From a virus (taxonomy: Duplodnaviria; Caudoviricetes): a DNA stretch of 64,000 bases. Below are positions 38,271 through 62,782 of this stretch, one piece after another. Below the pieces are notes generated by a model. It ran no database searches and was not told the DNA's origin. It saw nothing but the letters and a program-made list of their open reading frames with translations. The position numbers and the translations under genes are program-made. Position 1 is the stretch's first letter, and the number at the start of each line of letters is the position of its first letter. The DNA is taken from the IMG/VR virus record IMGVR_UViG_2931680285_000001, positions 1 to 64,000 of that record; one strand, given 5' to 3'.

Positions 38271-38609
38271 GTGAGCACACCACCTGAGTCCCCCTCGACA
38301 GATCGCCTCGTACGAGAAGCCGCCGGCCTGCTCCTCGCCGCGATCGGCACGCTGCTCGTCCTCTTCTCGCTCGGGCTCATTCACCCGGTCCTGGGCAGCA
38401 CCGCCGCGACGGCAGCCGCTCTCGGCCTCAGCTACTTCGTCCTGCACCCCCGTGGTCGAGGCGGGCGGATCGCGGCACGGGTGCTCACCGGGACCACATC
38501 TCTGGCCAGCGGCGTGACGGCCTTCCTGTATGTGCCGCCGCTCGCGTGGGTGGAGATCGGCGCGGCGGCTGTGGCCGTAGGAGCGTGGCTCGCCAGCGAG
38601 GGGGCCTGA
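38271..38609 (+). CDS. membrane protein preceding portal (4 hydrophobic segments)
   Basis: Hydrophobic helices; TGATG coupling to portal. Confidence 0.7.
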   Translation: MSTPPESPSTDRLVREAAGLLLAAIGTLLVLFSLGLIHPVLGSTAATAAALGLSYFVLHPRGRGGRIAARVLTGTTSLASGVTAFLYVPPLAWVEIGAAAVAVGAWLASEGA

Positions 38610-41056
38610 TGCCGCGCGAGTTCCTGCCTGGGCTTCGTCGCCTCCTCACCTCCCGCCCGGCGCAGGTGGAGGTGGAGGAGAAGTCCGCGGCGATCGGATC
38701 GTCGTACGTGTCGATGACGTACGCCGGTACGACGACGGTGTGGGGCACGGAGAACCGCGGGGCCGGATGGGACCTGGACCGGGTCATCCAAGAGGGCTAC
38801 GAACGGAGCGTCTGGACCTTCAAGGCCGTCGAGGCGATCTCCAAGCACCCCGGCGCCCTCAGCATCGAGATCGGACGCGGCGGCGATGACCGGCAGTTCG
38901 CCGAAACCCTCACGGACCATCCCCTGCTGCGCGTGCTGAACGTCCGGGCGAACCCTCTAGAGACGGCAGCCGTCTTCAAGAAGCGGCTCTCAGCGCAGTT
39001 CCTGCTCTCGAAGAAGGGCGCGTTCGTCGAGATCACCCGCTCGCGCGCGGGCATGATCACCCGGCTCGATCTGCTGCCGCCCAACCGGGTCGAGCCGATC
39101 CCTGACCCGCGCGGTGACTACCTCAGCCACTACCAGTTCACGACGTACGACGGCAGAATCCGCGAGCTCGATCCCAGCCGCGTCGTCTGGCTGCGCGACC
39201 CCCACCCGACCGACCCCTACTGCGGCGTCACCCCGCTCGAAGCCGCCGGTCTGTCCGTCGACCTCGACATCAAGGCCCGGCTCTACAACATCGCCTTCAT
39301 CGACAACGACGCGAGGCCGAGCGGGATCGTGGCCATCGATGTCGACGGGCTGGACCAGCGGGAGATCGACCGCATCCAACAGCGTCTCGCACCCGGTGCG
39401 CAGCAGGCGGGCGAGACCGTGGTCGTCGGCAGCGGGCCGGGCGGCCTCAACTACGTGGACACCAGCACCCGGCCCCGGGACATGAACTACGAGTCCCTGG
39501 CCAAGGCGGCAAAGGACGAGATCTTGAGCGCCTTCGGGGTGCCGGAGAGCATCGTCGGAAACGCGTCCGAGAGGACTTACGCGAACGCGGACCGCGAGGA
39601 GTGGAACTACTGGCAGCACACCGAGCTGCCGCACCTGGGCCTGATCGCGTCCGCCTTCGACTTCGATCTCGACGACGGCTGGTCGATCCGCTTCGACACT
39701 AGCGGGGTCGAGGCGTTGGAGTTCCCCAGGCGGCAGCGTCGGGCGGAGGCCCGGGAAGAGTGGAACGCCGGTTTGATCACGGCCGACGAGTACCGGGAGA
39801 TCGCCGGTCGCCGGCCGTTCAATGTGCCTCACACCCGCGCCCTGTGGATCAGCCCCCAGAAGGCGCCCGTGCCTGCGAGCGAGGCTGACGCTGCCGCGCT
39901 CGGCGTTGCGCAGGACCCCGCAGCCGGTGGTACGCCGGGCCTGCCTGGGGCTGGAGGTCCGCCTGCACGGCCGTCGTCTGCCGGTGCCGGGTCGGCGGCT
40001 GCCGCTGTCGCCGAGCCCACTGGCGCCTCCGGGTCGTCAGCTGCCGAGGACGTGGCGGCGGCAAGGAGCATGCTGGATGCGCCCGCCCTCGGCTCGGCCG
40101 CCGAAGACGTAGTCGCAGCGCGCGAGAAGCACCCGCTTCGGATCGACGGCGAGGCGTCAGCCGACGTGGCGGCGGCCCGCTCCACCGCCACCGCAACGAG
40201 CTCGGGGGACGCGGCGACGGATGTCGAGGCCGCGCGTACTCCGCTGGAGGGCAAGTCCGCCTCCGGCGGCGGCTACGAGGTCACGGACTCCGATTTCGAC
40301 ACGGCGGTCTCAGCGGTCACGGCCGTGCTCGCCGCGCTCCTGGCTCGCCAGGAAGGCGTGATCCGGGCCCGGCTGCGCTCTCCGAAGCTGCGCAAGCACA
40401 CAAGGTACTGGTCCCCGGACGGAGACACCGATCTGCGCGGAGGGACGGCGGCGATCGACGGTCAGCGCGTCGTCGGTGCTGCCCGCTGGGAGGAGGAGGT
40501 GGCCTCCACCCTTGCTCCGGTCCTTCAGCAGACCGCGTCGTCCACCGCCCAGAAGGTGACCAAGCACCTGACGGGCGCTGGCAGCGTGCCGGCCGGTGCC
40601 GCCGCCGCTGCTCTCACCGCGGCTGCTGTGTCCGGGCGCGCCGTCCTCGCCCTGCTCGCGGATCTGGCTGACGCCCTGGACGCCGCCCAGAACGAGACGA
40701 CGACCCTCGCCGATCTCGACGAGGTGATCACCAGCTTCTTCGCGGACCGCGCCGCGCCGTTCATCAGCCACATCGCCGAGTCCTCTGCGGTGACCACCGT
40801 GAACGGAGCTGCCGACGCTGCCGCCGAGAGCATCGGGCCATCAGTCCTGCGTACCTGGGTGACGAGGCGCGACGGCCGCGTACGGCCGCAGCACCAGCAG
40901 CTCGACGGAATCACCCTGCCCACCGGCACCGCGTTCGAGGTGGACCGTGTCCGCCTGCGCTACCCCGGCGACCCATTCGCCCCAGCTGACCTCACCGCCA
41001 ACTGCCGCTGCCGGCTGCGGTACCGCACCGGCCCTGCTCCGAGGGAGACCCCGTGA
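38609..41056 (+). CDS. phage portal protein fused to MuF/head-morphogenesis domain (815 aa)
   Basis: Portal motifs (LLRVL..N, G.TPL, N.ARPSG, ILSAFGVP, TYAN, GLITADEYR); C-terminal WVTRRDGRVRPQH...RYPGDP...NCRC. Confidence 0.85.
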   Translation: MPREFLPGLRRLLTSRPAQVEVEEKSAAIGSSYVSMTYAGTTTVWGTENRGAGWDLDRVIQEGYERSVWTFKAVEAISKHPGALSIEIGRGGDDRQFAETLTDHPLLRVLNVRANPLETAAVFKKRLSAQFLLSKKGAFVEITRSRAGMITRLDLLPPNRVEPIPDPRGDYLSHYQFTTYDGRIRELDPSRVVWLRDPHPTDPYCGVTPLEAAGLSVDLDIKARLYNIAFIDNDARPSGIVAIDVDGLDQREIDRIQQRLAPGAQQAGETVVVGSGPGGLNYVDTSTRPRDMNYESLAKAAKDEILSAFGVPESIVGNASERTYANADREEWNYWQHTELPHLGLIASAFDFDLDDGWSIRFDTSGVEALEFPRRQRRAEAREEWNAGLITADEYREIAGRRPFNVPHTRALWISPQKAPVPASEADAAALGVAQDPAAGGTPGLPGAGGPPARPSSAGAGSAAAAVAEPTGASGSSAAEDVAAARSMLDAPALGSAAEDVVAAREKHPLRIDGEASADVAAARSTATATSSGDAATDVEAARTPLEGKSASGGGYEVTDSDFDTAVSAVTAVLAALLARQEGVIRARLRSPKLRKHTRYWSPDGDTDLRGGTAAIDGQRVVGAARWEEEVASTLAPVLQQTASSTAQKVTKHLTGAGSVPAGAAAAALTAAAVSGRAVLALLADLADALDAAQNETTTLADLDEVITSFFADRAAPFISHIAESSAVTTVNGAADAAAESIGPSVLRTWVTRRDGRVRPQHQQLDGITLPTGTAFEVDRVRLRYPGDPFAPADLTANCRCRLRYRTGPAPRETP

Positions 41057-41268
41057 TCTGGCCCACCGTCTGGTTCGTCTGGACCTGCATGTTCGCCGTC
41101 GCCGAGACCATCGCCCTGGTCAACCGGCGCGAGGGCGACACCCTGAGCGAAACCGTCCGGGCTCTGTTCCACACCCGCACCTCCAAGGTCGGACGGGCGG
41201 CGTTCGCCGTCGGGTGGGCCGGATTCTCCGTCTGGTTCGCGGTACACATCCTCACCGAGACGATGTGA
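41053..41268 (+). CDS. small two-TM membrane protein
   Basis: GTGA overlap; W..W...F...E..AL...DTLSE...W...H. Confidence 0.65.
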   Translation: MIWPTVWFVWTCMFAVAETIALVNRREGDTLSETVRALFHTRTSKVGRAAFAVGWAGFSVWFAVHILTETM

Positions 41269-41310
41269 GCCCGTCTCCGTAGAGGGCAGCCCCGCCGGAC
41301 AGGCAGGCCG

Positions 41311-41339
41311 CGACGCTAGGCCGTCGCGCTCTGCATCGT
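41311..41339 (+). promoter_or_regulatory. Putative late promoter (leaderless giant gene)
   Basis: CGACGCTA-N15-CATCGT, 6 nt before ATG 41346. Confidence 0.6.
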
Positions 41340-41345
41340 CCGCGC

Positions 41346-44300
41346 ATGCTGATGCGCACCGCCCCGACCGACCTGAGTCGCACCCTTGAGGCCAAGTCCG
41401 TACGACGGCCGTGGAACTCTGCCCTCCACCCTCGGGACTCGAAGGGCAGGTTCATCGAAACGGGAGGAATTGCCCGCCTTTGGTCGGGCAATCTCGCCCG
41501 CGTCGTGCGCGCCCTGCCTCGCGACCGCGTCCTCGTCCAGGACCGTGCGTCCGACGGCACCTACACGGGACGGCGGCACAGCACCAGCGCCAAGTGGATC
41601 ACCATGGTGGCGCGCCCCGACGGCTCCGCGCCGACCGCGAACCAGAAGAAGGTCGAGCAGGAGGACGCCCGCCGGGGCGCCGACGACCGTCGCGGCCTCG
41701 GGCTGTCCCGCGACGACCACGGTGACCCGGACACGCCGGACGAGCCACACGACGTCGACGACGAGGGCAACGCGATCGGCGACGATGAGGGTGACGCGCC
41801 GGAGGACGACGACCAGGACGAGCCGGAAGACGGCACCCACGACGTCGACACGGACACCCTGCCCAACCGGCAGGCTCTGCCCGGCAGCCGTTTCACGGAC
41901 ACGGCCGCCGTACGTCGGCACTTCCTGGAGCTGGCCGAGCAGCCCGGCACCAACTCGGCGGCCCTGCGACGTCTCGCGGGCGATGAGGACTTGCAGATCA
42001 CGCCGACCGGCGGCCTGGTCACCACCCGCGACGACGCCAACGGCCGCTGGTACCTGACCGCGACCGGCACCGGCGGCTACCTCGACGTCGGCGACTTCTC
42101 CAGTCGCAGCGAGGCGGAGGCCGCCGCCGACTCCATCCACGAGAACGTCCGCAACGGCCACATCATGCCGGGCGAGTTCAACCAGCCCATCGACTTCTCC
42201 GACCCGAAGATCGGGACCTGGCTCCAGGACTGGCGCTCCACCAAGGGCGAGGGCGCCGAGCAGGCGATCCGCCGTGCGGTCAGCGACTTCCGCGCCTCTC
42301 GCCACAAGGAGGGTTCCGCCTCGCGTCCGAAGCCGGTACGCCAGGCCGCTCAGCCGCGAGGCCGGTTCACCACCCTCCAGCAGGCGCGGGACAACTGGGC
42401 CCGGCGTGCCGCAGACCTGCGGGCCTCCGGAAGCGAACAGGACCGGGCTGCCGCTCGTGCTCTCGACGAGCTGATCAAGGAGCCGCGGCTCAAGCTCGTC
42501 GGCGACGGACAGTTCGTCACCCACCGCGTGGACGGCGACTGGTACCTGCACGCGACCGGCACCGGACAGCAGATGGGGTGGTGGTTCGACAAGCAGGCGG
42601 ACGCGAAGGGCTTCGCCGACCACATCGTTGGCACGCTGAAGGGCAAGGACGGCAAGCCGCTCGACTTCTCCGACCCCGCCTTCGCCGACTACCGGGGCAC
42701 GTGGCGTTCGGACAAGGGCCGCGACTACCACCAGGAGTGGACCGCCGCTCGCGCCCTGTGGGACCAGGAGCACCCGCCCAAGCACAGCATCGCCACCGAC
42801 CGGCTCGCCGAGACGCTGCGACGCCCGCCGTTCGGCGACCAGCCGACCCCGGACGACAAGGACGAACAGTCCGCTCCGCCGTCCCCGGCACCGGGCAACG
42901 ACTCCGAGAACGACGTCCCGGGGACCGACTCCGGCCAGTCCGAACCTGGCCCGGCAGGCGAGCAGCCGGAGCCGGAGCAGGCCCCCGATCCCGAGGAGGC
43001 ACCGGAGGAGAGCGACGACCGGCCGGCAGGCGTGCCCGCCGACGCCGAGCCCGTCGACGGCGTGCCCGGGTACTGGGCAACGTCCTGGAACCCCGGCCCG
43101 GTCACCGTGTACGGCCCGGACGGCAGCCGGATCGCGTCTGTCGAAGGCGGCTACAGCGACCGGCACGCGACCGTCGACGGCGTACGGCTCCCCATCGGCG
43201 GCCACCTCACCATCGCTGACCAGATCATCGCCCGCCACCACCTGGCCACCACCGACCCGTCCCAGGCCGACCGCGTCCACCTCGCGTGGACCATGCACAA
43301 GACCAAGCGCGTGGTCGCCGTACGCGGCACCGTCAAGGACGATCCGACCGACGACCGCGCCGTCAACGCGGCCGGCAAGCTCGCCTGGTCCCCGGTGCAG
43401 AGCGCGCGGATCACCGGCACCCAGTGGAAGCCGGAGACCCGCGACCGCAAGGCCGCCGACATCCTGGCCGCCTTCGTCCGCCAGGGCCGCAACGTCCGCT
43501 TCACGGACGAGACCACCCGCAAGTCCGATGCTCCAGAGCCGTCGCAGCCGCTCGACGAGGAGGACAAGAAGCTCCGCGTCATGTCCGAGACGGACCTGCG
43601 CGAGCACCGCACCAACCTCCAGTTCCACGCCCAGACGGCACGGTCCCCGCGCAGCAAGCAGCAGGCCCTCAACTCCGTGCGCAAGGTGGAAGCGGAGCTG
43701 GAGCGCCGTCGCGCCGTCGCCGAGGACGGCGAGCAGAAGACCCCTCAGGAGCGTGCAGCGGCCCTGAGCGATGTCGACCTCGCCCAGGCCATCAGTAACT
43801 CCGAGCGCGAGCGCGGCACCTACGGCTCGCGTCGCGGCGACAAGCTCAACGATGACGAACGGGCGCTGTACGCGGACCGCCGCCGCCGCTCCACCGAGCG
43901 GATCTCGCGCGTCGCGGCCCCGCAGGACCTCGACGACGACGCCCTCACCTCGTACATCCAGGACCTGGACCGGCTGAAGCGAGCCCACGACCCGGGCGGT
44001 TCGACTCACGAGGAAGACGACCTTGCCCCCGAGCGCGACCTCTGGGACGACGTCTCTTCCCGGCTCGACGATGCCCTGAAGGAGCAGAGCGAGCGGCAGC
44101 TCCGCCAGATCGAGCAGCGCCCTCCCGTGCAGGACCTCGACGACGAAGCCCTGGAGGCGGAGGCCGCCAGGCTCCCGGTACGCCTGCCGAAGCTGGACGA
44201 GGAGCAGAACAAGATCCTCTCTGCCCGCCGCAGAGCGGTGTACGAGGAGCGTCAGAACAGGAAGGCGGGGGTCTACCGGCGCCGGCCCGAGCCCTCCGGC

Positions 44301-47300
44301 CTCGAAGACGGCGATCTCGTCAAGGAGTTCCGCGAGCTCCAGAAGAACCGCAACCTGACATCCGGAGCCGAGCGCGAGGCCCTGGAGGAGCGCCGGCGGG
44401 CCATCTTCGACGAGCAGAACCGTCGCGGTGCGAAGGGCCACGAGGAGACCGTGCGGCGTGCCGAGACCCGCGAAGACCCGCTGAACGCGCACTACAACAT
44501 CTCGGTCCGGGTCGACGGCAACTCTTACGGCGAGGTCTCGTACCACGAAACCGGCTCCACCTGGGCAGGCGGCCCCAAGGCCGGATGGAACGCGAAGACC
44601 GACCGGTACGGGGGCGGCCTGGGCTCCTTCCCGAGCATGGTCGAGGCCCTGGCCGCGCTCGTCGAGAACTACGACACCGACCCCAACACCGAGCCGGTCC
44701 GCCTGTACGGCCGGACCCACCAGGTATGGGTGCCGAAGATGTTCTTCGAGCTGTACCAGTCCTCCCGGCGCGCGGACTCCTTCCCGTCAGCGACCAAGGA
44801 ACGCCAGACCCTCTACGGCCGGTTCAAGGGGCACGGCTACGGATGGTCGGACCGCACCAATCCGATCACCGGGAAGATCGGCAAGGGCGCCGTCCTGGAG
44901 ATCCCTGAGGGACTGCTCGCCGAGTTCCAGCGGGTCACCGAGGAACTGTCCCGGGAAATGATGCTGCGGTCCACCGACCGCGAGCTGGACTCGTCGGACC
45001 GTTCCAAGGCCCGTACTCGACTGGCCGCGATCAACGCGGCGCTGCACGGCATCGACGCCGCGCGCACGAATGTACGAAAGGATGGCGGGGACGACGACCG
45101 CAAGGTCATCTCCGCCAAGGAGATCGAGGCGCAGCAGGCAGCCCTGCGCGCCGCACTGAGTACGGATGAGAGGGCTGAGGATGAGCATCTACAGCCAGGT
45201 GGCCAGGGACCACTGGACGAAGCATCTGCCCAGGGAACTGGCGCAGATGGCCGACCCGGAGAAGTTCTTCCTGAGCAAGGGCAGGGAGATCGAGACGGCG
45301 ATTCTGGTGGCCGAGGAGGCGCTGGAGAAGACCGTGCCGGCGGCGACGGAGTACGAGCAGCGGGCGGGTCAGCTCAGGCAGATCAGGGCGACCGCGACCG
45401 AGATGGTGCTGCGGGACCTGCTGCCGGAGCCCGAGCCGGAGACCGAGGAGCTGCCGACCCTCACGCCGGAGATGCGGGATCTGCTGGCGATGAAGGACGA
45501 GGTGTACGACATGTAGGCCGGTTCCGGCCGGACCCGGCCGACGCCGCGACCCGCGGGCCCGTTCAGCGTGCTGCCGCGAACGTCGAGGCGATCCGGGTCC
45601 TGAAGCGGCTGGAGCAGGAGAACCGTCCGGCCACCGAGCAGGAGAAGCGCACCCTCGCCCGCTGGAGCGGCTGGGGCTCGGTTCCGATCATGTTCGCGTC
45701 GGAGCCGAACGAGAAGGAGCCGCGCTACCAGCAGGGTGGCGCGCGCTTCGGGAAGTTCACGCAGGACCACGCCCGCTGGGCGGAGTACACCGACCTGCGG
45801 GCCATGCTCTCGAACGAGCTGACGCCGCTGGAGTGGCAGCAGGCTCGACGCGGCACGCTGTCCATGCACTACACGCCTCAGGGCATCGCCGAGGCCATGT
45901 GGGACGGCCTCAAGGCCCTCGGGTTCGAGCGCGGCGACGTTCTGGAGGCCGGGTCCGGGTCGGGCACGTTCTTCGGTGTCTCCCCGCAGGACGCCCGCCT
46001 CACGGGCGTCGAGCTCGATCCGACCACGGCACGGATCGCGAAGGCGATCTACCCGGACGTCAACGTCCTGAACGAGAACTTCGCCGAGACGGACGCCCCG
46101 GCCGGAACCTTCGACGCGTCCATCGGCAACGTGCCCTTCGCCGCTGTCCCCTTCGGCGATAAGCGCTACCCGTCCGAGTCCCTGCACAACGGCTTCGTCA
46201 CCAAGGAACTGGCACTGACCCGCCCCGGCGGCGTCACGCTCCTCATCACCTCGCGCCACACCCTGGACTCCAAGGGCGACAAGGCCCGCAAGCAGATCGC
46301 GAAGTACGGCGACCTCATTGGCGCCGTCCGCCTGCCGTCCGGCGTCTTCAGCGACGCCGGCACCAGCGTGGTCGCCGACGTCCTCGTCCTGCGTCGCCGT
46401 GCCGACGGCCAGGAGCCGGGAGACACCTCCTGGCTGAACGCGCCCGAGCGGAAGGTCGGGGACACCCGAGAGCACGTCAACGCCTACTTCGCTCAGCACC
46501 CTGAGCACATCCTGGGCGACCTCACCACCGAGTCGTCGCCGTACGGCCCGCGCCTGACCGTCAAGGGCGATCCGGGCAAGGCGGCCGACCAACTCCGCGA
46601 CGCCCTTCGCGACATCGCCGAGAAGGCCAAGGAGGACGGCCGCGGCTACGAGCCGCACCCCGACGGAGACGACCGCCTTCCCATCCACCTCCAGACCGCC
46701 CGCGAGAAGCACGCCAACGACTGGACCGGCCGCCTCTACGAAGGCGACGACGGCCAGCTCTACCAGCACGTCAACGGCGGCAACCCCGTCGTAGTCGAGC
46801 CGTCCGACGGCCAGGCCGACCAACTCCGGGCCCTGATGCAGCTCCGCGACGTCGCCGCCGAACTGCGTGTCCTGGACCGCAAGCGGGAGGAGGACGAGCG
46901 GGCCGAGAAGCTGCGTGCCCAGCTTCGCGACCTGCACACCTCGTACGTGCAGCAGTACGGGCCGCTGTCCAAGCCGGGCCAGTTCCGCAGCATGAAGACC
47001 GGCGTCCGAGAGGACGGCACGGAGGAGCGCACCCCGACCGCCTGGGGCTACTTCCGCTCCGACCCCGACGCCGGGTCGGTCCTCGCACTGGAGCGCTGGG
47101 ACGCGGACAAGCAGGAGCCGGTCCTCTCCCGCGTCTTCACCGAGCGGGCCGCCGCCCGTCGGCAGCCGCTCGACCAGACCGACGACCCGAAGACCGCCCT
47201 GTCCGCGGTCGTCGCCGCCACCGGCGAGGTCGACCTCGGCGAGATCGCCCGCCTGCTGAACACCGACCCGCAGGACGCCCTGCGGGCCCTGGGCACCGAG

Positions 47301-53300: not shown

Positions 53301-56300
53301 GGCGGCGGCGATGGCGTGTTCCAGGTGTGGATGGATGGCCGCAAGATCGGCCACGTCCGCCTCGTCGGCGGGAGCGCGGCCAAGGATTCCACCTGGGACA
53401 GCAGCCCCTCTCTCGTCCTTGGTGACGGTGGCATCACCCGTGCCGCGTCGAGGGACTTGGCCGTCGCTGCGCTCGTCGTGCGGGCTCTGCGTACTCCGGT
53501 CAGCGCTACCGACCCGAACGGGGACATCTGGGCGACCGTCAGGATGGATCTCGCCGGGCACTATCCGGAGCTTCCGGAGCTGCCCGCGCGGCTGGCCAAG
53601 GACCCGGCAGTGCGGGAGCGTTACGAGGGGATCGTCCAGCTCGTCGCGAACTTCCGCACCAGCGAGTTGGTCAGCGGCGACCTGCGCCAGGACATCGACC
53701 ACGCCAAGGGCGAGTTCGAATGGCTGAGGGACGTCTTGTCCACGCTTCCGGCCAAGCAGCAGAACCGTGACGTGCTCAGGGATCTGGACCGGCGCGTTCT
53801 CCTGGCTTCATGGCTCCGTGAGAGTCTGCCTCCCGAGGACCGCGATGAGGCGGGCCGCGCGCCCGACGGCCCCGGGGAGCCGGGCACCTCCCCGAGTAGC
53901 ACGGACTTCCCCGGAGAGACTACGGGCACTTCGCCGACGGACTCTGACGCCCCTGCCGGCGACATCGGCGAGCAGCGCCACCCGTCCGCTGACAGGACAG
54001 GTCGCAGCCGTCCCGAAGCGGAGCAGGGAACCACGCCCGAAGCGGCGCGCGAGGAGAGCGGTCAGGACGCGCGTGCCCGCCAGGACGACGAGGCCGAGGA
54101 TAGGACGGGGGGCTCGGAAGCGAAGCCCGCCGCCGATCCCGTGTCGAAGCCTGACGAGACCGAGGACCCGGGGGCCCGGCCCGAGCCGAGCGTCGAGCCG
54201 GAGCCGGTCGGTGGTCAGCCCGCTCATTGGGCCAGCATCGACCACCTGGCCCCAGGCGACATGGCTCGTATCGACGGGACCACCCGGCGCGGTCGTGCCA
54301 CCACGCTCGCCGGGTACGTGCTCGACTATCCGGAGCGGGTCACTGTGACCCGCCGGGGCCGCACCGAGGAGATGTGGCGCATCCGGATCGGCGAGTCCCC
54401 GGACAGCCTTTCCGGCTCCCGCAGTACCGTCTACACGCCGCTCACTGCCACGGCTGCCCGCGCCGAGGCGCCCGAGTCGTCCGCGCCGGGTACCCCAGTG
54501 AGCGGCGCCCAGGGCGAGGTCGCCAGCGGCGATCTTCCGGACCGTATCGCCACCGACTCCACCGGGGCGGGTCTCTTCCCCGGCAGCCACGTAACCGGCG
54601 CCGATGGACGCGACGGCACGGTCACGGGCGTCACCGATACCACCGCCAATGTCCGGTGGTCTGACGGCGACACCGATACGGGCGTCGCACCGGCGTCCCT
54701 GACCGCTGACGACGCGGACGACCGCCGCCCCGCCGGTTGGACCTCTACCGGCCAGCGGATTCGTCCGGGTCACCTCGTCGCTGACGACGGCGCGCTCCTC
54801 GGCCCCGTGGACGAGGCCGACGGAGATCGCATCACGGTCACCACCGCTGACGGCACGGTCACCCGCGATGCCTCGCGCCTGAGCGTGGTCGGCGAAGTCC
54901 GCGACGAGACCCCGCAAGAGGCGCCGGTCACAAGCGTCACCCCGCACACGGCTGGGGACACCTCCAAGGGCGACGTCATCGTCCTCGACCTCGACGGCTC
55001 CCTGATCACGGTGGAAGTCCGGGACGCGGACCGGGACGGCGACCGGGTCACCCTCGACTACGTCGACATCGCGACGGGCGAGCTCGGCGGTATCGAGATG
55101 GACGCCGCCACCGTCATCTCGAAGGCCGAAGGCCCCGACGGCAGCACCCCGGCATTCAGCAACACCGTGCCGGAGGCCGAGGGCGACTTGACCGTGCACG
55201 AGCCGCCCGCCGTCCTCGACCCCGTCGCCGGTCCGACCGTCGATCCGGACCTCACGCCGGCAGACCGAGACGTGATCGCCGACCACGGCTCCGCGCCGGA
55301 GGACGACCCCGACGCGCAGCAGGCCGTCGCCCGTATCGGGGCCGATCTGCCTGTGACGGACACCCAGGCCAGCGCGCTTGCCGCCCAGCTCCGGGCCAAC
55401 GGCAACCCCGCTACCCGAGACGGACGGGCGGCGCTGCGCGCCGCTGACCACCTGGACCCGGACAACGCTCCGGAAGGACTCGACCGTCCCCGGCCGTCCA
55501 CCGCCGCCCAGGTCGGCGAAGGCGACGTCATCGCAATACCCGACGAGCGTCGCGACAACGAGGTCCGCACCTACCGCGTCCTCGACGTCGAGGAGGCTCC
55601 CGGCGGCATGCGGAGTCTCTTGCTGGAGGACGAGGACCGGCAGTGGAAGCGTCGCATGGTCCCCGCCAGCATGCCCGTGTGGCAGTTGCCGGAGCCCACC
55701 CGCGCCGACGACAGCACCACCCCGGCCGCTACAGCACCGGAGACCCCTGCTCCGCGCGAGCCGAACCCCCCGCTGGCGTCTGTACGCCGCCAGATCATCG
55801 CCGAGCACGGCCGCATGATGGCCCTCCGCATCGTCGACGAGGCGGTGGCCGGCACGGAGCAGCCCGGGAGCGTCCACGCACTGCGCGAGCAGATCTCGCT
55901 TCGGCTCACGCCGGACGCTCTTCGCGATGCCCGCGAGCAGGCCCGCCGAGAAGCCGGCGCCGCGCTGGACGCCGCCGGGATCACGGGCCGGGACCGAGTT
56001 TCAGCTCAGCAGGCCCTTCGCCGTGCGCGGGACAAGGCTCACGACCGGACCGTCCGCGCCGCGCTCCGCACCATCAACGATCTCGAACCCCTCCCCGGTG
56101 AGCCTGACGAGGACCTGGCGCAGCGGGTCGCAGGTCTCCTCCGCCTCATCCCCGTCCCCGACGAGCCCGCGCCCGTCCGGCGCCGCAGCGCCCCGTCCGC
56201 GCCCGGCACCCGCGCCCAGGGCGGTGGGTCTTCGGAGGCGACGGGGCACGCCGATGACGCCGTGACGTCGCTGCTCCAGCACCTTCAGGACGGCGGCGTT

Positions 56301-57667: not shown

Positions 57668-57901
57668 ATGTTGGTCACTGGTCGCTTTGATGATGGTTCC
57701 GCCTATCAGGTGCGGGTCACCGGAGACGCGGAGCGGCCGGTGATCGGCTCCGTGCGTGCGGCTGCGCTCGTCGAACTGCACGCGGGCAAGCCGATCCTGC
57801 TCACGCCCACCGGGCCCCAGCGCACCGTCGCCGGGAACGACGTCCAGTCGGTGCGCGCCGTGCTCGGGCGGCACACCACCGTGCTCGACTCCGCGCCGTA
57901 A
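57668..57901 (+). CDS. small hypothetical protein coupled to the giant gene
   Basis: GAAGGGG RBS; LTPTGP motif. Confidence 0.7.
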   Translation: MLVTGRFDDGSAYQVRVTGDAERPVIGSVRAAALVELHAGKPILLTPTGPQRTVAGNDVQSVRAVLGRHTTVLDSAP

Positions 57902-57957: not shown

Positions 57958-58539
57958 GTGATCAGATACGGATTCGCGATCAAGGCGCTCCCAAAAAGCG
58001 GCAAGCCGTTCGGCGACGAGGAGGACCAGGACGACACCCCTGAGCTGGAAAACGGCCCGCTTCCCGAGGACGGCGCGCCAGCGTCAGCCGGGGCCGCCGT
58101 GTCCGAGCCGAATGCTTCGTCATCGGGTGTGGAGGGCGACACAGAGGCAGCCGAGGAGCCGCCGCTCGACGAGACCGGACCCGAGCCGGACGATCGCTCC
58201 TCGTCGACGGACGGTGATGCCGCAGCCGGTCCCGAGAGCGACGCGCGCCCCTGGTCGGGCGATCCGTACGATGAAGGCGACGAGACGGACCCCGCCGATG
58301 CCTTCGCCGCGTACAAGGGCCCAGGCGGCGAGGAGGCATGGCTCGATCAGGCTCCGGACGGCACACTGACGGGGTGGGTCAGGGATGAGACTGGCCAGGT
58401 GTGGCGGTACACAGATCCGAGCGTGTGGGCCATCGACGTCGACGACGCCCCGATGACCCGCACCCACAGTCAGGCCACCGCCGGGCCGCCGCCGGACGAG
58501 CACGGCGGCCAAGACCCCCTGTTCCCGCCGACGCGATAG
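57958..58539 (+). CDS. acidic hypothetical protein with Trp-rich C-terminal domain
   Basis: D/E-rich disordered half; AWLD...TGWVRD..GQVWRY...W. Confidence 0.7.
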   Translation: MIRYGFAIKALPKSGKPFGDEEDQDDTPELENGPLPEDGAPASAGAAVSEPNASSSGVEGDTEAAEEPPLDETGPEPDDRSSSTDGDAAAGPESDARPWSGDPYDEGDETDPADAFAAYKGPGGEEAWLDQAPDGTLTGWVRDETGQVWRYTDPSVWAIDVDDAPMTRTHSQATAGPPPDEHGGQDPLFPPTR

Positions 58540-58551
58540 GAGCCCTCAGCA

Positions 58552-58764
58552 GTGCAGCTCAACCGCCAGACCGCCTGGAAGCTGATGCAGGAGGGGAAGG
58601 ACGCGTTCGCGCAGGGAGACCCGGGCGACGCCTGTCCCTACGACGCCCGCAGCGCCGACGCCGAGCAGCAGTTCGGCGCCTGGTACTGGAGCCGCGGATG
58701 GTCCGATGCTCGCACTGCCGCCGAAGCCGCCGTCCCGGAGTCAGACGTCGAAGTGGCTCGGTAG
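58552..58764 (+). CDS. Rmf/CrpP-fold small protein
   Basis: EGKDAFAQG....CPY...W.RGW..A pattern; AGGAG RBS. Confidence 0.65.
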   Translation: MQLNRQTAWKLMQEGKDAFAQGDPGDACPYDARSADAEQQFGAWYWSRGWSDARTAAEAAVPESDVEVAR

Positions 58765-58770
58765 AAGGGC

Positions 58771-59115: not shown

Positions 59116-59295
59116 GGTCGGGGTGGCCTTTCGGGTACGGGCGGACGGGTGCACACCATCGGAGCCGGTGCTTCTCGCACCGGGCTCGGGCGTGTCCAGT
59201 TGTTGCGATCCTCGGCCCGTACAGGCCGCCACTGCGGGGCTCGCCCCGCTGCGCACAGCCTAGTACGCGCAGGCCCGCGACGGCGGCGCACCGCA

Positions 59296-59324
59296 GGACA
59301 GTAACCAGGCCGGCACTGCACGGT
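59296..59324 (+). promoter_or_regulatory. Putative late promoter (protease)
   Basis: GGACAGTA-N15-CACGGT. Confidence 0.55.
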
Positions 59325-59364
59325 CCGCGGCGGCCATTCGTCCAGCCGCCGAAGGAACACCACT

Positions 59365-61293
59365 GTGCCGACCGCGCCCGCGCCCCGCGCGCCTGCGTCA
59401 CGTAAGGGCATCTGCCGCGCCATTTTCGCCGTGACCGGAGTCGTCGACGAGGTCGCCGACTTGATCGTTCCGGGAGCTTTCGCGCACACCCTGGCGACCA
59501 GACCTGTGAAAACGGTTTGGCACCACGCGTGGACGGACCCCATCGGCGTGGTTCTGGAGATCACCGAGTGGCGACCGGGCGATGCGCGGTTCGCCTCGAT
59601 TCCGAACTGGCCGGCGGAGGCCGGGGCGCTGGTCGCGACCATCCAGTTCAACCTGAGGACCCAGCGGGGCCGCGACGTCTACGAGCAGGTCCGCCAGTGG
59701 CACGAGCACGGCGAAGCCCAGTTCAGCATCGGCTACCGCGTGCCCCCGAGCGGAGCCACGAAGCGGTCGGACGGGGTTCGGGTGATCCACAAGCTCGACC
59801 TCTACGAGGTCTCCCCCGTCCTTCATGGCGCGCACCCGATGACCCGGTCCTTGGAGGTCAAGGCCGATGGTGGCGCCACGGAGTTGGAGCACAAGACGAC
59901 AGCGGGCGGGCACCTCGACTTCAAGGCCGCCGAGCGGCAGGTTGGTCGCGGGGCGATGGTCGCGCTGTACGTGCCTGGCGAGATCGCGGGCAGGATCGCC
60001 CACCCGGACGGCACCTTTGCACGGGACCTGCACATCACGCTGGCCTATCTCGGCGACGCCGAGCGGCTTCCCGGCCACCCTGACGACCTCGCCGACCTCG
60101 TGGCCGCAGCCCTTGAAGGCGCGAGCCCCGTGGAGGGGAAGATCGGGGGGATCGGCCGGTTCCCGGACACGGGCGACGGCGAGCCGGTCTTCGTGCCGGT
60201 CGACGTGCCGGGGTTGGCGTCGCTGCGCCAGCGGATCGTGGACGCGATCGAGTCGTCCCCGCTCGCTTCCTCGCTGAACGTCGACCACGACTTCACGCCG
60301 CACATCACGCTCGGGTACGGCCTGCCGCTGGACACCGTGCCCACCCCGTCCATCCCGGTCGCCTTCGACACCGTGCACGTCGTACGAGGACCGGACTCGA
60401 CTCCCATCCGCTTGCTCGGCCCTCTCACTGCCGATGCTCACACCGAGCCGACCGTGACAGAGCCACGTTTCGCCTCTCCGGCCCCAGCTGAGGAGAAGTC
60501 CGCGCACCAGGCCGTCCGCCAGGCTCTGGCTGCGCCCCGCTGGGCCCGCGCGAGCGCCCACGCCGCCGTCCTCGAAGCCAAGTCCCGTATCCCCACAGGA
60601 GTTCCCGTGTCGCCTCTCCAGCCTCTTCCCGCCTCCTACGAGGACATCCGCGAGCAGGTCAGCGATGCCGTCCACGGCCTGCTCGCCTCTGAGGACGGCA
60701 CCTGGTGCTGCGTCGAGGCGACCTACCCGGACCGGGTCATCGTCTCCGTCCACCAGGGTGACTCGGGCGCTCGAACCTACGCCGTCCCGTACAGCATGTC
60801 CGGCACGGAGATAGCCCTCGAAACGCCCCAGCCCGTCGCGCTGGCCACCGTGGTGATCCCCGACGAGGGATCGGTACGCCCTGCCGACAGCGCCGAGACA
60901 GCCGACAGCCTCCTCGTCCGCCCCACCCTGCGCGCGCTCGCGGAGGCGACCTCCCGCGTCCAGGCCGCGGACGCCTCTGAGCAACTGGAGCCCGTACGGG
61001 CCTCGGTGAGCAGCCTCCTCAGCGCCCTGTCCGCCAAGGGCCTCGACCTCACCGCCGAGGACGATGAGGAAGGCCCTGTCGGGGAACGGCTCCCCGCCAG
61101 CGGCTCGGCAGCCGTGGCCGGCAACGGCATCGACCTGTGGGACGACCCATACGACGAACCTCACGATGTCGACGAGGACGAGGACGAGTCCGAGAACGGC
61201 GACAACGCCGAGGAAGAGGTCGACGAGATGGGCGCGACCGTTCATCTCGACGCGACAGAGGTAAAGGCGCGCCTGGCCGCGATCCAGCTCTAG
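59365..61293 (+). CDS. HK97-type prohead protease fused to 2H phosphoesterase and acidic C-terminal region (642 aa)
   Basis: D.I.PGAF...WHH...PIG...FSIGY...LYEVSPV..GA; two HIT motifs LHITLAY (60031) and PHITLGY (60301). Confidence 0.85.
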   Translation: MPTAPAPRAPASRKGICRAIFAVTGVVDEVADLIVPGAFAHTLATRPVKTVWHHAWTDPIGVVLEITEWRPGDARFASIPNWPAEAGALVATIQFNLRTQRGRDVYEQVRQWHEHGEAQFSIGYRVPPSGATKRSDGVRVIHKLDLYEVSPVLHGAHPMTRSLEVKADGGATELEHKTTAGGHLDFKAAERQVGRGAMVALYVPGEIAGRIAHPDGTFARDLHITLAYLGDAERLPGHPDDLADLVAAALEGASPVEGKIGGIGRFPDTGDGEPVFVPVDVPGLASLRQRIVDAIESSPLASSLNVDHDFTPHITLGYGLPLDTVPTPSIPVAFDTVHVVRGPDSTPIRLLGPLTADAHTEPTVTEPRFASPAPAEEKSAHQAVRQALAAPRWARASAHAAVLEAKSRIPTGVPVSPLQPLPASYEDIREQVSDAVHGLLASEDGTWCCVEATYPDRVIVSVHQGDSGARTYAVPYSMSGTEIALETPQPVALATVVIPDEGSVRPADSAETADSLLVRPTLRALAEATSRVQAADASEQLEPVRASVSSLLSALSAKGLDLTAEDDEEGPVGERLPASGSAAVAGNGIDLWDDPYDEPHDVDEDEDESENGDNAEEEVDEMGATVHLDATEVKARLAAIQL

Positions 61294-61477
61294 CGCGATC
61301 CAGCTCCACGGTCCCTCGAACCCTCCACTGAAAGGAGTTTCCGCAGGTCAGACCCTTTCGACGCGACATTAGGGGCCTCCTCTCTCTCCAATACCCGGCG
61401 TTGTCGGGTCGTCCCGGTGCTGGCCGGGCGAGCGACGCACGTCAACCGCCCCCCAGCACGTGGAGAGAGCAGCCGAG

Positions 61478-62782
61478 ATGGCTGAGAGCAAGTCCCTGAT
61501 CAACAACCTCCGCCAGCAGCTCGCCGAGAAGTCGGCGGAGGCCGAACGAATCAGCCGCACCTTCAAGGTCGAGGACAACGGCGGCTTCGTCGTTTCGACC
61601 GAGCAGGCCACGGCCTTCAAGAAGATCTCCAACGAGGCAATGGAGCTCAAGCAGCTCCTCGCCGACGCGGAGGGTATGAGCGAGGTGAAGCAGTACCTCG
61701 ACGAGCCCGACGGCCCGTCCTCCGCCGGGCAGTTCTACGGCCAGCAGCCCGCGCACGGCGGCATGGAGGGCAAGAGCCTCGGTGACCTGTTCGTCGAGAG
61801 CGACGCGTACAAGAACGCGGCCCAGGCCGGCTTCCGTGACCGCCCGTATGTGAGGGCGGAGATGGAGGGGAAGTCGATCTTCAGCCTGTCTGGCGGCACC
61901 GTCACGCACCAGACGCTCGGGTCCGCGCAGAACCTCGGGATCGCCGAGCGCGAGTACCGCAAGATGCACATTCGGGATCTCTTCCCGAAGAGCTCCACCA
62001 AGCAGTCCGTCCTCTACGGAGCCCGCGAGACCGGGTGGACCAACAACGCCAAGCAGGTGAAGGAACGTTACGGCGCCGACGGCTCCAGCCCGGCGACCGG
62101 AGCGGACACCGACACCTGGGGCCGCGCACCGCGATCGAAGCTGGCCCTAGTGCCTGTCATGTACCCGATCAGCGAAATTGCCCATCTGCTCGACGCGCAT
62201 AAGAATATTCTTTCCGACGAGCCGCGACTGAAGACATTCATTAACTCTCGAATGGTTGAGGGTGTGAAGTATCAGGAGGACTGGGACCTCCTGCACTCTG
62301 TCGGTGACGGCCAGTCCCTGACGGGCATCTTCAACACGCCCGGGGTCCAGCAGTACCGAGGGCTCGCGACCGACAAGTACAGCGTGCAGATACGCCGCAG
62401 CATCACCAAGGCGCTGCTAGCCGAGTACGACCCCACGGGCATCGTCCTGTCTCCGACGATGTGGGAGCACGTGGAGGTGGAGGAGGACGACACGGGCGCT
62501 TTCCGCGTCGCCCTCCAGATCGCGGTCGGCGCGACCAAGCGCGTCTGGAGGCTGGACGTCGTCGAGACGACCGCGATGGCCGACGAGCAGTTCCTCGTGG
62601 GCGCCTTCGGTCTCGGCGCCCAGCTCCACGACCGGGAGTCCGTCTCTGTCACGGTCAGCACCGAGAACGGCGAGAACGTGGAGAAGGGCTTGGTGACGTT
62701 CCGAGCGGACGAGCGGGTCGCGCTCGAAATCCCTCGCCCGGAGAGCTTCGTGATCGGCACCTGGACCGCTCCCGCCGGCTGA
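61478..62782 (+). CDS. HK97-fold major capsid protein with N-terminal delta domain (434 aa)
   Basis: Coiled N-terminus, IRDLFP, Y.RETG, IAH...ILSDEP.L..FIN..M, GDG..LTGIFN, V.FRA.ER.AL...RPESFV. Confidence 0.9.
   Translation: MAESKSLINNLRQQLAEKSAEAERISRTFKVEDNGGFVVSTEQATAFKKISNEAMELKQLLADAEGMSEVKQYLDEPDGPSSAGQFYGQQPAHGGMEGKSLGDLFVESDAYKNAAQAGFRDRPYVRAEMEGKSIFSLSGGTVTHQTLGSAQNLGIAEREYRKMHIRDLFPKSSTKQSVLYGARETGWTNNAKQVKERYGADGSSPATGADTDTWGRAPRSKLALVPVMYPISEIAHLLDAHKNILSDEPRLKTFINSRMVEGVKYQEDWDLLHSVGDGQSLTGIFNTPGVQQYRGLATDKYSVQIRRSITKALLAEYDPTGIVLSPTMWEHVEVEEDDTGAFRVALQIAVGATKRVWRLDVVETTAMADEQFLVGAFGLGAQLHDRESVSVTVSTENGENVEKGLVTFRADERVALEIPRPESFVIGTWTAPAG

Follow-up and report, generated by a model that had tools for sequence, protein, structure and literature searches.

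Why should a capsid protein, a portal, a protease and a giant protein of one phage head module carry the same short motif, and what would a cut at that motif accomplish? The window, that is, the whole 64,000-nucleotide stretch analysed here (IMG/VR record IMGVR_UViG_2931680285_000001), most likely encodes an HK97-type (S78) prohead serine protease that reads a four-residue code, hydrophobic-Glu-x-Lys, the predicted cut following the Lys, with a small residue usually coming next. By this most likely reading, the shared motif at the joints of the four proteins directs predicted cuts that free enzymes inside the head. We consider it probable that the whole sequence of events holds, from reading of the code by the S78 protease and release of the products in the head to their departure with the DNA as anti-defence cargo.

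Element and head module

Judged from its sequence, the window holds the head module of an integrated relative of the Streptomyces siphophage Gilgamesh (129 kb), in an element of ~130 kb that constitutes a large Streptomyces prophage. The gene order of the head module matches that of Gilgamesh, a phage on which our literature search found no paper. The position of the terminase gene shows that the phage region begins far upstream of the head module.

17873..19624, + strand: large terminase homologue (tblastn with Gilgamesh TerL, 72% identity, 586 aa, C5:351329-353080)
40990..41268, + strand: small membrane protein, Gilgamesh gp47 homologue (translations compared by eye; start not fixed)
57668..57901, + strand: Gilgamesh gp49 homologue (translations compared by eye)
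57958..58539, + strand: acidic protein, Gilgamesh gp50 homologue (translations compared by eye)
58552..58764, + strand: small ribosome-modulation-factor-like protein, Gilgamesh gp51 homologue (Pfam RMF 2.8e-05; 24.5 bits, below the cut-off of 27.9)

Inspection of the translations revealed no motif in the gp47 and gp49 homologues; the gp50 homologue likewise has none, and Pfam and PHROG searches with it gave no match. Gilgamesh gp51 is itself annotated as RMF.

A motif concentrated in four head proteins

The initial annotation had placed ten copies of [LMVA]ExK[SAT], and all ten coordinates proved exact: VEEKS (38672) and LEGKS (40244) in the portal, LEAKS (41385, residues 14-18) in the giant protein, LEVKA (59851), LEHKT (59884), AEEKS (60487) and LEAKS (60571) in the protease, and AESKS (61481), MEGKS (61763) and MEGKS (61862) in the capsid. 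Composition-preserving shuffles, used to obtain the chance expectation for each protein, give 0.085 motifs for the portal (2 seen), 0.07 for the protease (4 seen, a number reached in 0 of 2000 shuffles) and 0.13 for the capsid (3 seen); the giant protein is not enriched (1 seen versus 0.63 expected). Against a crude GC3-filtered ORF set covering the whole genome (5477 ORFs, 2,255,408 aa), which holds 197 matches at a rate of 0.087 per 1000 aa, the 10 matches in the 7510 aa of the four head ORFs compare with 0.66 expected (binomial P 1.8e-9), a ~15-fold enrichment over the rest of the genome. Of the 13 copies of the strict form [LM]ExKS in this set, 5 fall in the head module (0.043 expected), and no ORF has more motif matches than the protease. 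The ten sites use differing codons, and the signal thus resides in the protein rather than in the DNA.

Since the motif was chosen with the sequences already in view, the P values above err on the optimistic side, and conservation in relatives provides the independent test. The motif is indeed conserved in homologues: alignments show Glu and Lys in matching columns at nine of the ten sites, and in the protease, portal and giant protein both residues are retained in ~95-100% of 120-121 listed relatives (90%-identity cluster representatives, the best 120 listed of 294, 178 and 328 matches). Averaged over the Glu and Lys columns, the commonest residue reaches a frequency of 0.99, versus 0.54 in 78 other linker columns of these best listed relatives. 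ExK also marks the capsid, portal and protease of two distant myophages, Gordonia ChisanaKitsune and Brevibacterium Cantare, as well as the N-termini encoded by genes between their portal and protease. In class B prophages the protease domain is 43-45% identical, yet no shared ExK motif was seen.

Capsid sites and the HK97 cleavage position

61478..62782, + strand: major capsid protein, HK97 fold, with N-terminal helical scaffolding (delta) domain (Pfam Phage_capsid 3.7e-26)
61763..61777, + strand: candidate site 1, MEGK/SLG, end of the delta domain (family alignment, model)
61862..61876, + strand: candidate site 2, MEGK/SIF, 33 residues past site 1 (HK97-equivalent spacing)

The capsid protein aligns with HK97 gp5 (BLASTP, 3e-34), and its AlphaFold2 model shows helices at residues 2-33 and 47-81 and an HK97-like body from ~160; the two conserved sites adjoin or fall in segments with pLDDT < 50. 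Site 1, which follows a low-confidence stretch (86-103), fits a family-wide K/S/T-[LIV]-G pattern with Ser or Thr after Lys; in its column, 136 capsid-family representatives have Lys in 94, Ser/Thr in 125, Gly at +3 in 118 and Glu at P3 in only 43, and ExK is present in 7/7 class A capsids. Site 2 lies inside the low-confidence stretch 133-153 and has ExK/S in 7/7 class A capsids only. It is 21 residues before G160, while HK97 K103/S104, a proven cut (PMC10275583), is 19 before the aligned G123, which by BLASTP spacing puts site 2 within two residues of the HK97 cut position. The HK97 site itself, FNK/S, has no Glu at P3; together with the 43 of 136 capsids this makes the Glu requirement a guess for the present lineage. 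AESKS at residues 2-6, directly behind the ATG at 61478, is not conserved, as relatives lack the site.

Sites in the portal-MuF fusion

38609..41056, + strand: portal-MuF fusion, 815 aa from the ATG at 38609 (Pfam Phage_portal 4.8e-50, Phage_Mu_F 1.5e-05)
38672..38686, + strand: candidate site VEEK/S, closing a ~25-residue portal leader (same column in listed relatives)
40244..40258, + strand: candidate site LEGK/S at the portal/MuF joint, after an Ala-rich repeated linker (column conservation)

The Phage_Mu_F score (26.1 bits) is below the curated cut-off of 29.6; phrog_2662 spans both halves of the protein, and Gilgamesh gp46 is annotated as a 'portal and MuF-like fusion protein'. Both candidate sites are kept in 6/6 close relatives. 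Among the best 120 listed portals, the leader site has Glu in 115 and Lys in 116 (4 gaps), and the joint site has Glu in 119 (Gln in 1) and Lys in all 120, amid variable adjacent columns. The P1' residue is loose in these portals, being Asp in 70 and Ser in 39 of the leader sites and Glu in some joints.

A protease gene with an exchangeable enzyme

59365..61293, + strand: prohead protease gene (Pfam Peptidase_S78 4.5e-11, 2_5_RNA_ligase2 7.1e-15, LigT_PEase 6.8e-07)
59851..59865, + strand: candidate site LEVK/A, end of the protease domain (Glu 119/120, Lys 120/120, best listed)
59884..59898, + strand: candidate site LEHK/T, linker 1 (Glu 120/120, Lys 120/120, variable flanks, best listed)
59932..60435, + strand: 2H phosphoesterase domain, residues 190-357, two H-x-T motifs (phmmer, Foldseek, pLDDT > 90)
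60487..60501, + strand: candidate site AEEK/S, linker 2 (Glu 117/120, Lys 118/120, best listed)
60571..60585, + strand: candidate site LEAK/S, end of linker 2, ahead of the C-terminal domain (Glu 118/120, Lys 117/120, best listed)

The gene encodes, in order, the S78 protease, a linker, the 2H phosphoesterase, a second linker, a C-terminal domain, an acidic stretch and a terminal helix. The AlphaFold2 model is folded at residues 13-167, 190-357 and 420-560 with a helix at 630-641, and every candidate site of the protease falls in or at the edge of a stretch of pLDDT < 50, linker 1 (168-189) among them; linker 2 is of low confidence over residues 358-397. S121 and H54, the latter paired with a His of HK97 gp4 by alignment, are each invariant in 56/56 sequences. 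The best Foldseek matches of the 2H domain are drCPDase (5h7e) and Escherichia coli LigT (TM 0.6-0.69), and a phmmer alignment to 5h7e pairs both HxT motifs.

The best 120 listed protease relatives contain 726 hydrophobic-ExK motifs; the two linkers account for 694 and the C-terminal tail for 28, which leaves 4 for the folded protease and 2H domains. LEVK/A is kept in 7/7 close relatives, one with Gln at P3; a predicted strand (162-167) ends at this site, which may be hard to reach. The seven close protease genes carry either 2H (four) or NUDIX (three) between the same conserved sites; Gilgamesh gp52 is such an S78-NUDIX protein (5.1e-16).

The giant protein is a leader-tagged candidate

41346..57656, + strand: giant protein, 5436 aa (translation, phrog_10089, Pfam, alignment)
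41385..41399, + strand: candidate site LEAK/S, closing a 17-residue leader (alignment of 121 giants)
41397..41468, + strand: invariant tag SVRRPWNSALHPRDSKGRFIETGG, exposed if the leader is removed (alignment of 121 giants)
45015..50411, + strand: DarB-like methyltransferase and SNF2-type helicase core, residues ~1224-3022 (PHROG match, tblastn)

The giant protein consists of the leader, an invariant N-terminal module, the DarB-like core and a conserved C-terminal region of ~1850 aa; its conserved N- and C-terminal regions had no match in the libraries searched. It matches phrog_10089, 'DarB-like antirestriction' (3.6e-225), and Pfam SNF2-rel_dom, with ResIII and N6_Mtase below their cut-offs. 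A tblastn query with residues 1400-2700 aligns to the giants of Burkholderia phages DC1 and Bcep22 across 99% of its length (31% identity) and to P1 darB across 43% (26.8% identity, E 2e-15).

Among 121 listed giants the leader is variable (15-22 residues), and the column of the site has Glu in 114 (Gln in 5), Lys in 118 and Ala, Val or Ser at P1'. Directly behind it, W23, H28, P29, R30, D31, G34, R35 and F36 are each present in 119 of the 121. In the genome ORF set the pattern HPR[DG]..G[RK]F has a single match, and class B prophages bear related tags on five ORFs in cargo position. When the window's own ~590-kDa giant was searched with a profile of the protease tail peptide, no significant match emerged.

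These observations revise two earlier proposals. The motif had been described as marking domain boundaries, which fits the portal, protease and capsid, whose sites fall in predicted flexible linkers, and does not fit the giant, whose sole site is N-terminal rather than at internal domain borders. Likewise, release of enzyme domains from polyproteins agrees with MuF and 2H, each bracketed by sites, and fails for the methyltransferase/helicase giant, which has no internal sites: its one site follows residue 17, and the 121 listed relatives average 0.84 sites per ~5000 residues. The giant is thus a candidate for leader-tagged cargo, not a polyprotein.

Proposed mechanism and alternatives

The idea that the sites are maturation sites is supported by the computation, with Glu (P3) and Lys (P1) near-invariant in variable, low-confidence linkers and a capsid site at the HK97 cut position. 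The putative code would be written twice at the end of the capsid helical scaffolding domain, after the ~25-residue portal leader and at the portal/MuF joint, twice right behind the protease domain and at least twice before its C-terminal domain, bracketing the folded 2H phosphoesterase, and once in the DarB-like giant (5436 residues), directly behind its 17-residue leader. Acting within the assembled prohead, the protease would remove the scaffold, detach MuF from the portal, free a 2H enzyme of about 200 residues (178-378) and trim the giant leader, exposing the invariant RRxWNxALHPRDSKGRF tag; the giant would undergo no internal cuts. Folded products are expected, from T4, to be too large to leave through the shell, and so would remain in the head and exit with the DNA at the next infection. 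The methyltransferase/helicase giant would then shield incoming DNA from restriction, like P1 DarB, and nucleotide signals, or RNA ends carrying a 2',3'-cyclic phosphate, would be destroyed by the 2H enzyme. Cleavage, head retention, ejection and anti-defence activity are all putative, and for packaging, release and injection we infer by analogy with T4, P1 and Bcep22-like phages. If true, this would be a variant of a known phage strategy of protease-released head cargo, with a hydrophobic-Glu-x-Lys code.

An alternative that we regard as unlikely is that the sites are genuine but serve only to clear out scaffold and protease, the 2H (or NUDIX) domain and the giant acting in the producing cell and not being injected; 2H could then, for instance, break down alarm nucleotides in late infection or repair RNA ends. 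HK97-type proteases do digest themselves, and the nearest folds of the 2H domain are LigT/CPDase RNA-end enzymes, with Acb1 ranking only 44th in Foldseek. According to a 2026 preprint, gp21, the prohead protease of T4, suffices on its own to set off CBASS signalling in vivo, and the authors propose that sensing of proteases is widespread (PMC12991175), so that a signal-degrading domain on the protease precursor would be sensible before assembly. However, sites that flank a well-folded domain in ~98% of the best 120 listed relatives, and the exchange of 2H for NUDIX between fixed sites, resemble a design for release rather than plain degradation. The giant leader site moreover implies contact with the protease, which is expected to be active inside proheads, and in JC1 and P1 the DarB-like giants form part of the virion.

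That the motif is instead a docking or targeting signal (for the capsid interior, the portal or a chaperone) with no scissile bond appears improbable. Its place in leaders and linkers recalls capsid-targeting sequences, and a conserved E-V-K lies inside the protease C-terminal helix, where a cut seems less obvious; nevertheless, capsid site 2 corresponds to the proven HK97 cleavage position, site 1 falls on a family-wide K/S-L-G boundary, and a four-residue signal repeated two to three times running in linkers is typical of protease sites. Still harder to sustain is cutting by a host protease, or another modification of the Lys, with the phage protease uninvolved: Lys-directed modification exists in actinomycetes, but nothing specific favours this reading, and both the concentration of strict motifs in the head module (5/13) and their tracking of the capsid maturation site oppose it. 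Chance, or the composition of Ala/Glu/Lys-rich linkers, is barely credible, for although the giant alone is not enriched and the motif was picked after inspection, the low genome rate and the near-invariant Glu and Lys amid variable neighbours in the best 120 listed relatives per protein contradict it.

Comparison with known systems

Release of cargo by the head protease, the reading we favour, resembles T4 (IPI-III and Alt, which have a capsid targeting sequence and are cut by gp21) and the giant phage SPN3US (gp245), where short N-terminal leaders ending in the protease consensus are cut off and one consensus is common to capsid, protease and packaged or ejected proteins (PMC7411985). The T4 gp21 motif is given as I/LxE (PMC12991175); here, by contrast, an HK97/S78-type protease is predicted to cut a hydrophobic-Glu-x-Lys code behind Lys instead of Glu, the capsid protein brings its own scaffold as a delta domain, one of the candidate cargo enzymes is encoded within the protease gene itself, and the main cargo candidate is a single protein of 5436 residues. 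With HK97 gp4/gp5 the system shares a TIGR01543-like S78 protease (44.3 bits, below the equivalog cut-off of 59), a delta domain on the capsid and, for the predicted cut at site 2, the spacing of the HK97 cut after Lys at the delta/N-arm border, HK97 differing in the P3 Glu. We know of no portal processing and no embedded enzyme or cargo in HK97.

The 2H domain shares its fold and two HxT motifs with the anti-CBASS nuclease Acb1, from which it differs in its nearest folds, and the Pfam Acb1 model does not match the protease-2H protein. The polyvalent proteins of phages and conjugative elements (Iyer, Burroughs, Anand, de Souza and Aravind 2017) are likewise giant multi-enzyme proteins of virion context; the available text describes 2H fused to MuF or portal, proposes packaging and injection, suggests that 2H may degrade nucleotide signals, and invokes self-processing through embedded zincin-like peptidases, 'prohead' appearing in it only in the reference list (PMC5512222). 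Unlike that proposal, as far as this text goes, the present one points to processing by the head protease at a defined four-residue code, with no splitting of the giant predicted. The Bcep22-like podophages share the 31% identity over a 1301-residue core and differ in head type and host, and the available accounts describe no leader or cut-site code for them; JC1 gp69, a DarB-like protein of 4515 aa, was reportedly found in purified virions by mass spectrometry (PMC9144972). P1 DarB, whose first 30 residues suffice for capsid targeting (PMC9024508), has a homologous methyltransferase and helicase core and a gene that adjoins portal and protease, whereas the giant described here is more than twice as long and its leader ends in the protease motif.

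Organization of the head module

The window has ~70% G+C and corresponds to G000:C5:333457-397456 of an 8.75-Mb genome; its head module comprises the following large genes.

38609-41056, + strand: portal-MuF fusion
41346-57656, + strand: giant protein of 5436 residues, with a match to phrog_10089 ('DarB-like antirestriction', 3.6e-225) over residues ~1224-3022
59365-61293, + strand: 642-residue protein with S78 prohead protease and 2H phosphoesterase domains
61478-62782, + strand: HK97-fold capsid protein

A large terminase homologue is found 19 kb upstream of the portal gene. The capsid gene is followed on its 3' side by a phosphoesterase/exonuclease-like gene, a TIG-domain protein, an adaptor-like protein and a second MuF-like domain, after which come the tail tube, tape measure and distal tail genes. 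The portal protein ends in MuF, with no further domain behind it, an arrangement unlike that of MuF polymorphic toxins, in which an N-terminal MuF precedes a C-terminal toxin.

Among named phages, Streptomyces phage Gilgamesh (129 kb; capsid identity 78.5%; host S. lividans according to its GenBank record) comes closest; it shows the same gene order: gp46 (portal-MuF), gp47 (a small membrane protein), gp48 (4624 residues, annotated 'hypothetical'), gp49-51, gp52 (annotated 'hydrolase') and gp53 (capsid). The small genes of the window correspond to gp47, gp49, gp50 and gp51; the counterpart of gp51 (58552-58764, between the giant and protease genes) resembles ribosome modulation factor (RMF), with a Pfam RMF score of 24.5 bits that falls below the cut-off. 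Gilgamesh also codes for an FtsK-like translocase and two tyrosine integrases. The contigs of many relatives measure 121-137 kb, near the Gilgamesh genome size, and some of these records are labelled plasmid. Gilgamesh-like elements may often live as episomes; the window's own element sits within a 461-kb contig.

Two further features concern MuF. The linker between portal and MuF (39950-40240) carries four to five tandem Ala-rich AAxDVAAAR units just ahead of the joint site, and these are kept in relatives. The second MuF-like domain belongs to a neck-region protein 2.7 kb past the window end (L001:4052-4693); it scores 2.3e-4 with Pfam Mu_F (22.3 bits, below the 29.6 cut-off) and 5.2e-11 with phrog_2662, and is devoid of the Glu-x-Lys motif (ExK) described below.

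A Glu-x-Lys motif is concentrated in four head proteins

The initial annotation had listed ten occurrences of the motif [LMVA]ExK[SAT] in the portal, giant, protease and capsid proteins, and all ten coordinates were exact on re-check. Shuffles of each protein gave expected counts of 0.085 for the portal (2 observed), 0.07 for the protease (4 observed), 0.13 for the capsid (3 observed) and 0.63 for the giant (1 observed). A crude whole-genome ORF set (5477 ORFs, 2.26 million residues) served as background: it holds 197 occurrences, ten of them within the four head ORFs (0.66 expected, P 1.8e-9), and 13 occurrences of the strict form [LM]ExKS, five of them within the same four. Since codons vary among the sites, the signal lies at the protein level, and a reading as a DNA motif was discarded. 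A further match, LEQKT at 36900, falls in an endonuclease/exonuclease/phosphatase-family gene (36768-37658) two genes upstream of the portal; it is probably due to chance, because Gilgamesh has no counterpart. As the motif was picked after inspection, its conservation in relatives is the real test.

Conservation of the sites in relatives

In Gilgamesh, the joint between portal and MuF reads LETK|T and the giant leader LEVK|A, the protease has four motif sites at matching places, and the capsid protein has IEEK|SLG and IEGK|SIF, as well as AEIKS at residue 53. Outside these head places, the 39 annotated genes scanned in the fetched stretch contain two matches, one in an integrase and one in the tape measure protein.

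Of 401 genomes of the family searched with the capsid, 31 gave a match; ten of these were fetched, and two groups of related prophages can be told apart. Class A prophages (capsid 57-77% identical among those fetched) have the giant gene and keep Glu-x-Lys in the same column in 6/6 portals at both sites, 6/6 giant leaders, 7/7 proteases and 7/7 capsids, one protease having Gln instead of Glu at one site. Class B prophages (capsid 45-48% identical) lack the giant gene, and their fetched loci show no common ExK; their sites consist of K|S-L-G in the capsid and a loosely similar L-D-x-K. The class B protease domain is 43-45% identical, and a joint change of protease and sites between the two classes is at most a possibility.

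Conservation extends to a collection of 5.8 billion proteins, from which the best 120 of 294 protease, 178 giant and 328 portal matches were analysed; these are 90%-identity cluster representatives, kin to one another rather than independent samples.

Residues at the Glu and Lys positions of the motif sites in homologues
Protease site 1 (LEVKA, 59851): Glu 119, Lys 120; n=120 (best 120 of 294)
Protease site 2 (LEHKT, 59884): Glu 120, Lys 120; n=120 (best 120 of 294)
Protease site 3 (AEEKS, 60487): Glu 117, Lys 118; n=120 (best 120 of 294)
Protease site 4 (LEAKS, 60571): Glu 118, Lys 117; n=120 (best 120 of 294)
Giant leader site: Glu 114 (Gln 5), Lys 118; n=121 (best of 178)
Portal leader site: Glu 115, Lys 116; n=120 (best 120 of 328)
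Portal-MuF joint site: Glu 119, Lys 120; n=120 (best 120 of 328)

Conservation reaches 0.99 in the Glu and Lys columns, compared with 0.54 in 78 other linker columns. The best 120 of 294 protease matches contain 726 hydrophobic-ExK sequences, distributed between the two linkers (694), the C-terminal tail (28) and the folded protease and 2H domains (4). The proposal that these sites are kept in homologues stands for the portal, the protease, the giant leader and, among class A capsids, the sites at 61763 and 61862, and fails for AESKS at 61481, which corresponds to capsid residues 2-6, is missing from relatives and was dropped as a site.

Capsid sites and the HK97 cut

The capsid protein matches HK97 gp5 by BLASTP (3e-34), and its model (pLDDT 84.5) shows two long N-terminal helices (2-33 and 47-81) followed by an HK97-like body. 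Capsid site 1 (MEGKS, 61763) comes directly after a low-confidence stretch of the model (86-103), and site 2 (MEGKS, 61862) lies within another (133-153). HK97 is cleaved at K103/S104 (PMC10275583). In the BLASTP alignment, which pairs window residues 160-437 with HK97 123-383, S104 of HK97 stands 19 residues before an aligned Gly and S139 of the window protein 21 before it. Site 1 fits a family-wide K|S/T-[LIV]-G pattern: among 136 capsid representatives, 94 have Lys, 125 Ser/Thr and 118 Gly, and 43 have Glu at P3, two positions ahead of the P1 Lys. Lys at P1 is therefore old, being widespread across the capsid family, unlike Glu at P3. From these alignments, a need for Glu appears to be a refinement of this lineage and, likewise, of a group of Gordonia and Brevibacterium myophages.

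An exchangeable enzyme domain in the protease

The S78 domain (Pfam PF04586, 4.5e-11) has a His, H54, aligned with a His of HK97 gp4; H54 and S121, which we take to be the catalytic residues, are invariant in 56/56 sequences. The AlphaFold2 model (mean pLDDT 75.8) is folded at 13-167, 190-357 and 420-560, ends in a helix (630-641), and drops below a confidence of 50 at 168-189, 358-397 and 413-418. These low-confidence stretches flank the 2H domain as two linkers, and each of the four protease sites thus falls inside one of them or at its edge.

Alignment of seven close proteases shows that the domain enclosed by the conserved sites is 2H in four (the window and the relatives' genomes G245, G272 and G216) and NUDIX in three (Gilgamesh, G293 and G229), Gilgamesh gp52 being S78 plus NUDIX by Pfam. 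A loci search with the protease C-terminal domain returned 5 loci only, with no additional kind of domain in this slot among them. The 2H domain retains both HxT motifs. Its closest Foldseek matches are Deinococcus CPDase (5h7e) and E. coli LigT; rotavirus VP3 and Acb1 (7t27, at rank 44) are far weaker, and Pfam gave no Acb1 match in the protein; the 2H fold is thus not closer to Acb1 than to cellular LigT/CPDase.

The C-terminal helix of the protease, TVxLDxxEVKxxLAAIQ (61218-61290), holds a conserved E-V-K and resembles two peptides of the giant, one at residue 3101 (about 50646) and one at residue 3227 (about 51024). A pattern derived from the three peptides themselves matches the giant at these two places, which is circular as a test of the helix as a loading signal. 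A profile built from 120 protease C-termini has no significant match in the window's giant; of 120 relatives, about a dozen show weak matches of about 11-25 bits close to residue ~3200. A role of the helix in loading is at most a lead.

Gordonia phage Dexdert (L063 4750-7587), of a different actinophage lineage, encodes, between MuF and capsid, a 945-residue head-module protein with 2H mid-protein; its two database annotations differ, one being 'RNA ligase' and the other 'head maturation protease'.

The giant protein has a leader, a tag and a variable middle

The giant had initially been read as a polyprotein cut at the motif. This reading does not survive, because its sole site is that of the leader, LEAK|S, after residue 17, and the mean of 0.84 sites per ~5000 residues in 121 relatives (best of 178) likewise corresponds to the leader site only. 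The leader is directly followed by RRxWNPALHPRDSKGRFIETGG, an invariant tag; in class B prophages, five ORFs in the cargo position begin with a related Lys-...-LHPRDGxGRF stretch. A tblastn search of the phage collection with the first 110 residues matched Gilgamesh alone.

Across 34 aligned giants, residues 1-310 and about 3580-5436 are conserved and the middle is variable: by precomputed Pfam labels, some giants have a DarB-like middle and others a UvrD-like one, and in many, the Gilgamesh type among them, it belongs to no family. These alignments make the giant resemble a carrier whose payload can be exchanged. In the window the gene, placed between portal and protease, encodes methyltransferase and SNF2 domains. 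Its core (1301-residue query) shares 31% identity with the Burkholderia phage DC1 and Bcep22 giants across 99% of the query, and 26.8% with P1 darB across 43% (tblastn, E 2e-15). The N-terminal 320 and C-terminal 1857 residues have no match in Pfam, PHROGs or NCBIfam, and their Atlas scores, at most 0.78, were not usable; scans of the same three databases revealed no embedded peptidase. A 4515-residue homologue of phage JC1 is present in purified virions (PMC9144972), and the first 30 residues of P1 DarB are enough for capsid targeting (PMC9024508).

A GC3 scan also picked out a 118-codon frame (45160-45516, GC3 0.94) nested in another frame inside the giant gene.

Discussion

In the mechanism that we propose, the protease, the scaffold-bearing capsid protein, the portal-MuF fusion and the giant would assemble into a prohead. 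From cleavage onward we infer that the protease would remove the capsid delta domain, free MuF from the portal and the 2H enzyme from its own polypeptide, and trim leaders, the folded products being retained in the head and leaving it with the DNA.

Several elements recall known systems. As in HK97, there is an S78 protease with conserved His and Ser and an HK97-fold capsid protein with an N-terminal scaffolding (delta) domain; by sequence position, the capsid sites would suit removal of the delta domain through cleavage behind a Lys where the N-arm begins. As with T4 cargo, the giant has a short N-terminal leader ending in the putative consensus of the head protease, and its core is homologous to P1 DarB, an N6-methyltransferase and helicase. 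Like the polyvalent proteins (Iyer et al. 2017), it unites several effector domains in one polypeptide among virion genes; a zincin-like peptidase for self-processing, frequent there and not obligatory, did not show up in its Pfam, PHROG and NCBIfam scans. The general idea is already established or proposed, through the leaders and protease motifs of T4 and SPN3US, the P1 Dar system and polyvalent proteins; for the last of these, fusions of 2H with MuF or portal have been described, and 2H has been suggested to degrade nucleotide signals (PMC5512222). The literature searched, mostly outside the subscription journals, yielded no paper on phage Gilgamesh, a Glu-x-Lys rule or protease-2H/NUDIX fusions, and in it we found no HK97-type protease with a hydrophobic-Glu-x-Lys rule common to capsid, portal, protease and cargo, no exchangeable enzyme slot within a protease gene, and no leader, tag and carrier layout like that of these giants.

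The main rival explanation keeps the cuts and has the 2H and NUDIX enzymes act in the producing cell. A 2026 preprint makes it somewhat more attractive by reporting that the prohead protease of T4 suffices for triggering CBASS (PMC12991175).

On a further reading, which we consider improbable, Gilgamesh-like Streptomyces elements would form an addressable capsid-cargo platform. Its parts would be a four-residue hydrophobic-Glu-x-Lys code that the head protease recognizes, a slot for an enzyme (2H or NUDIX) within the protease gene, and putative giant carriers with fixed N- and C-terminal parts and a swappable middle (DarB-like, UvrD-like or unnamed). In its boldest form, the slot enzyme would be an antidote to protease-sensing immunity: the protease would trip nucleotide-signalling defences such as CBASS and bring a signal-destroying enzyme, which the same cut would release.

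If the proposed mechanism is right, HK97-type phages would gain a simple, readable rule for head passengers and cut places like that of T4 and giant phages, and the sequences of hundreds of Streptomyces prophages and plasmid-like phages would allow their virion cargo to be predicted. A slot with flanking cut sites, holding 2H or NUDIX, would be a compact way to deliver or time a counter-defence enzyme, and a short leader with the invariant tag could load chosen proteins into Streptomyces phage heads.

Gordonia phage ChisanaKitsune (L004 11712-15709) and Brevibacterium phage Cantare (L005 7662-10784) are distant myophages with a related head module. Their genes between portal and protease begin with a short leader ending in ExK, followed by R-R/K-V-R...YGxPIG, and include an annotated ADP-ribosyltransferase toxin, a 1040-residue protein and a 969-residue 'HNH' protein that has this unit twice, at residues 10 and 469.
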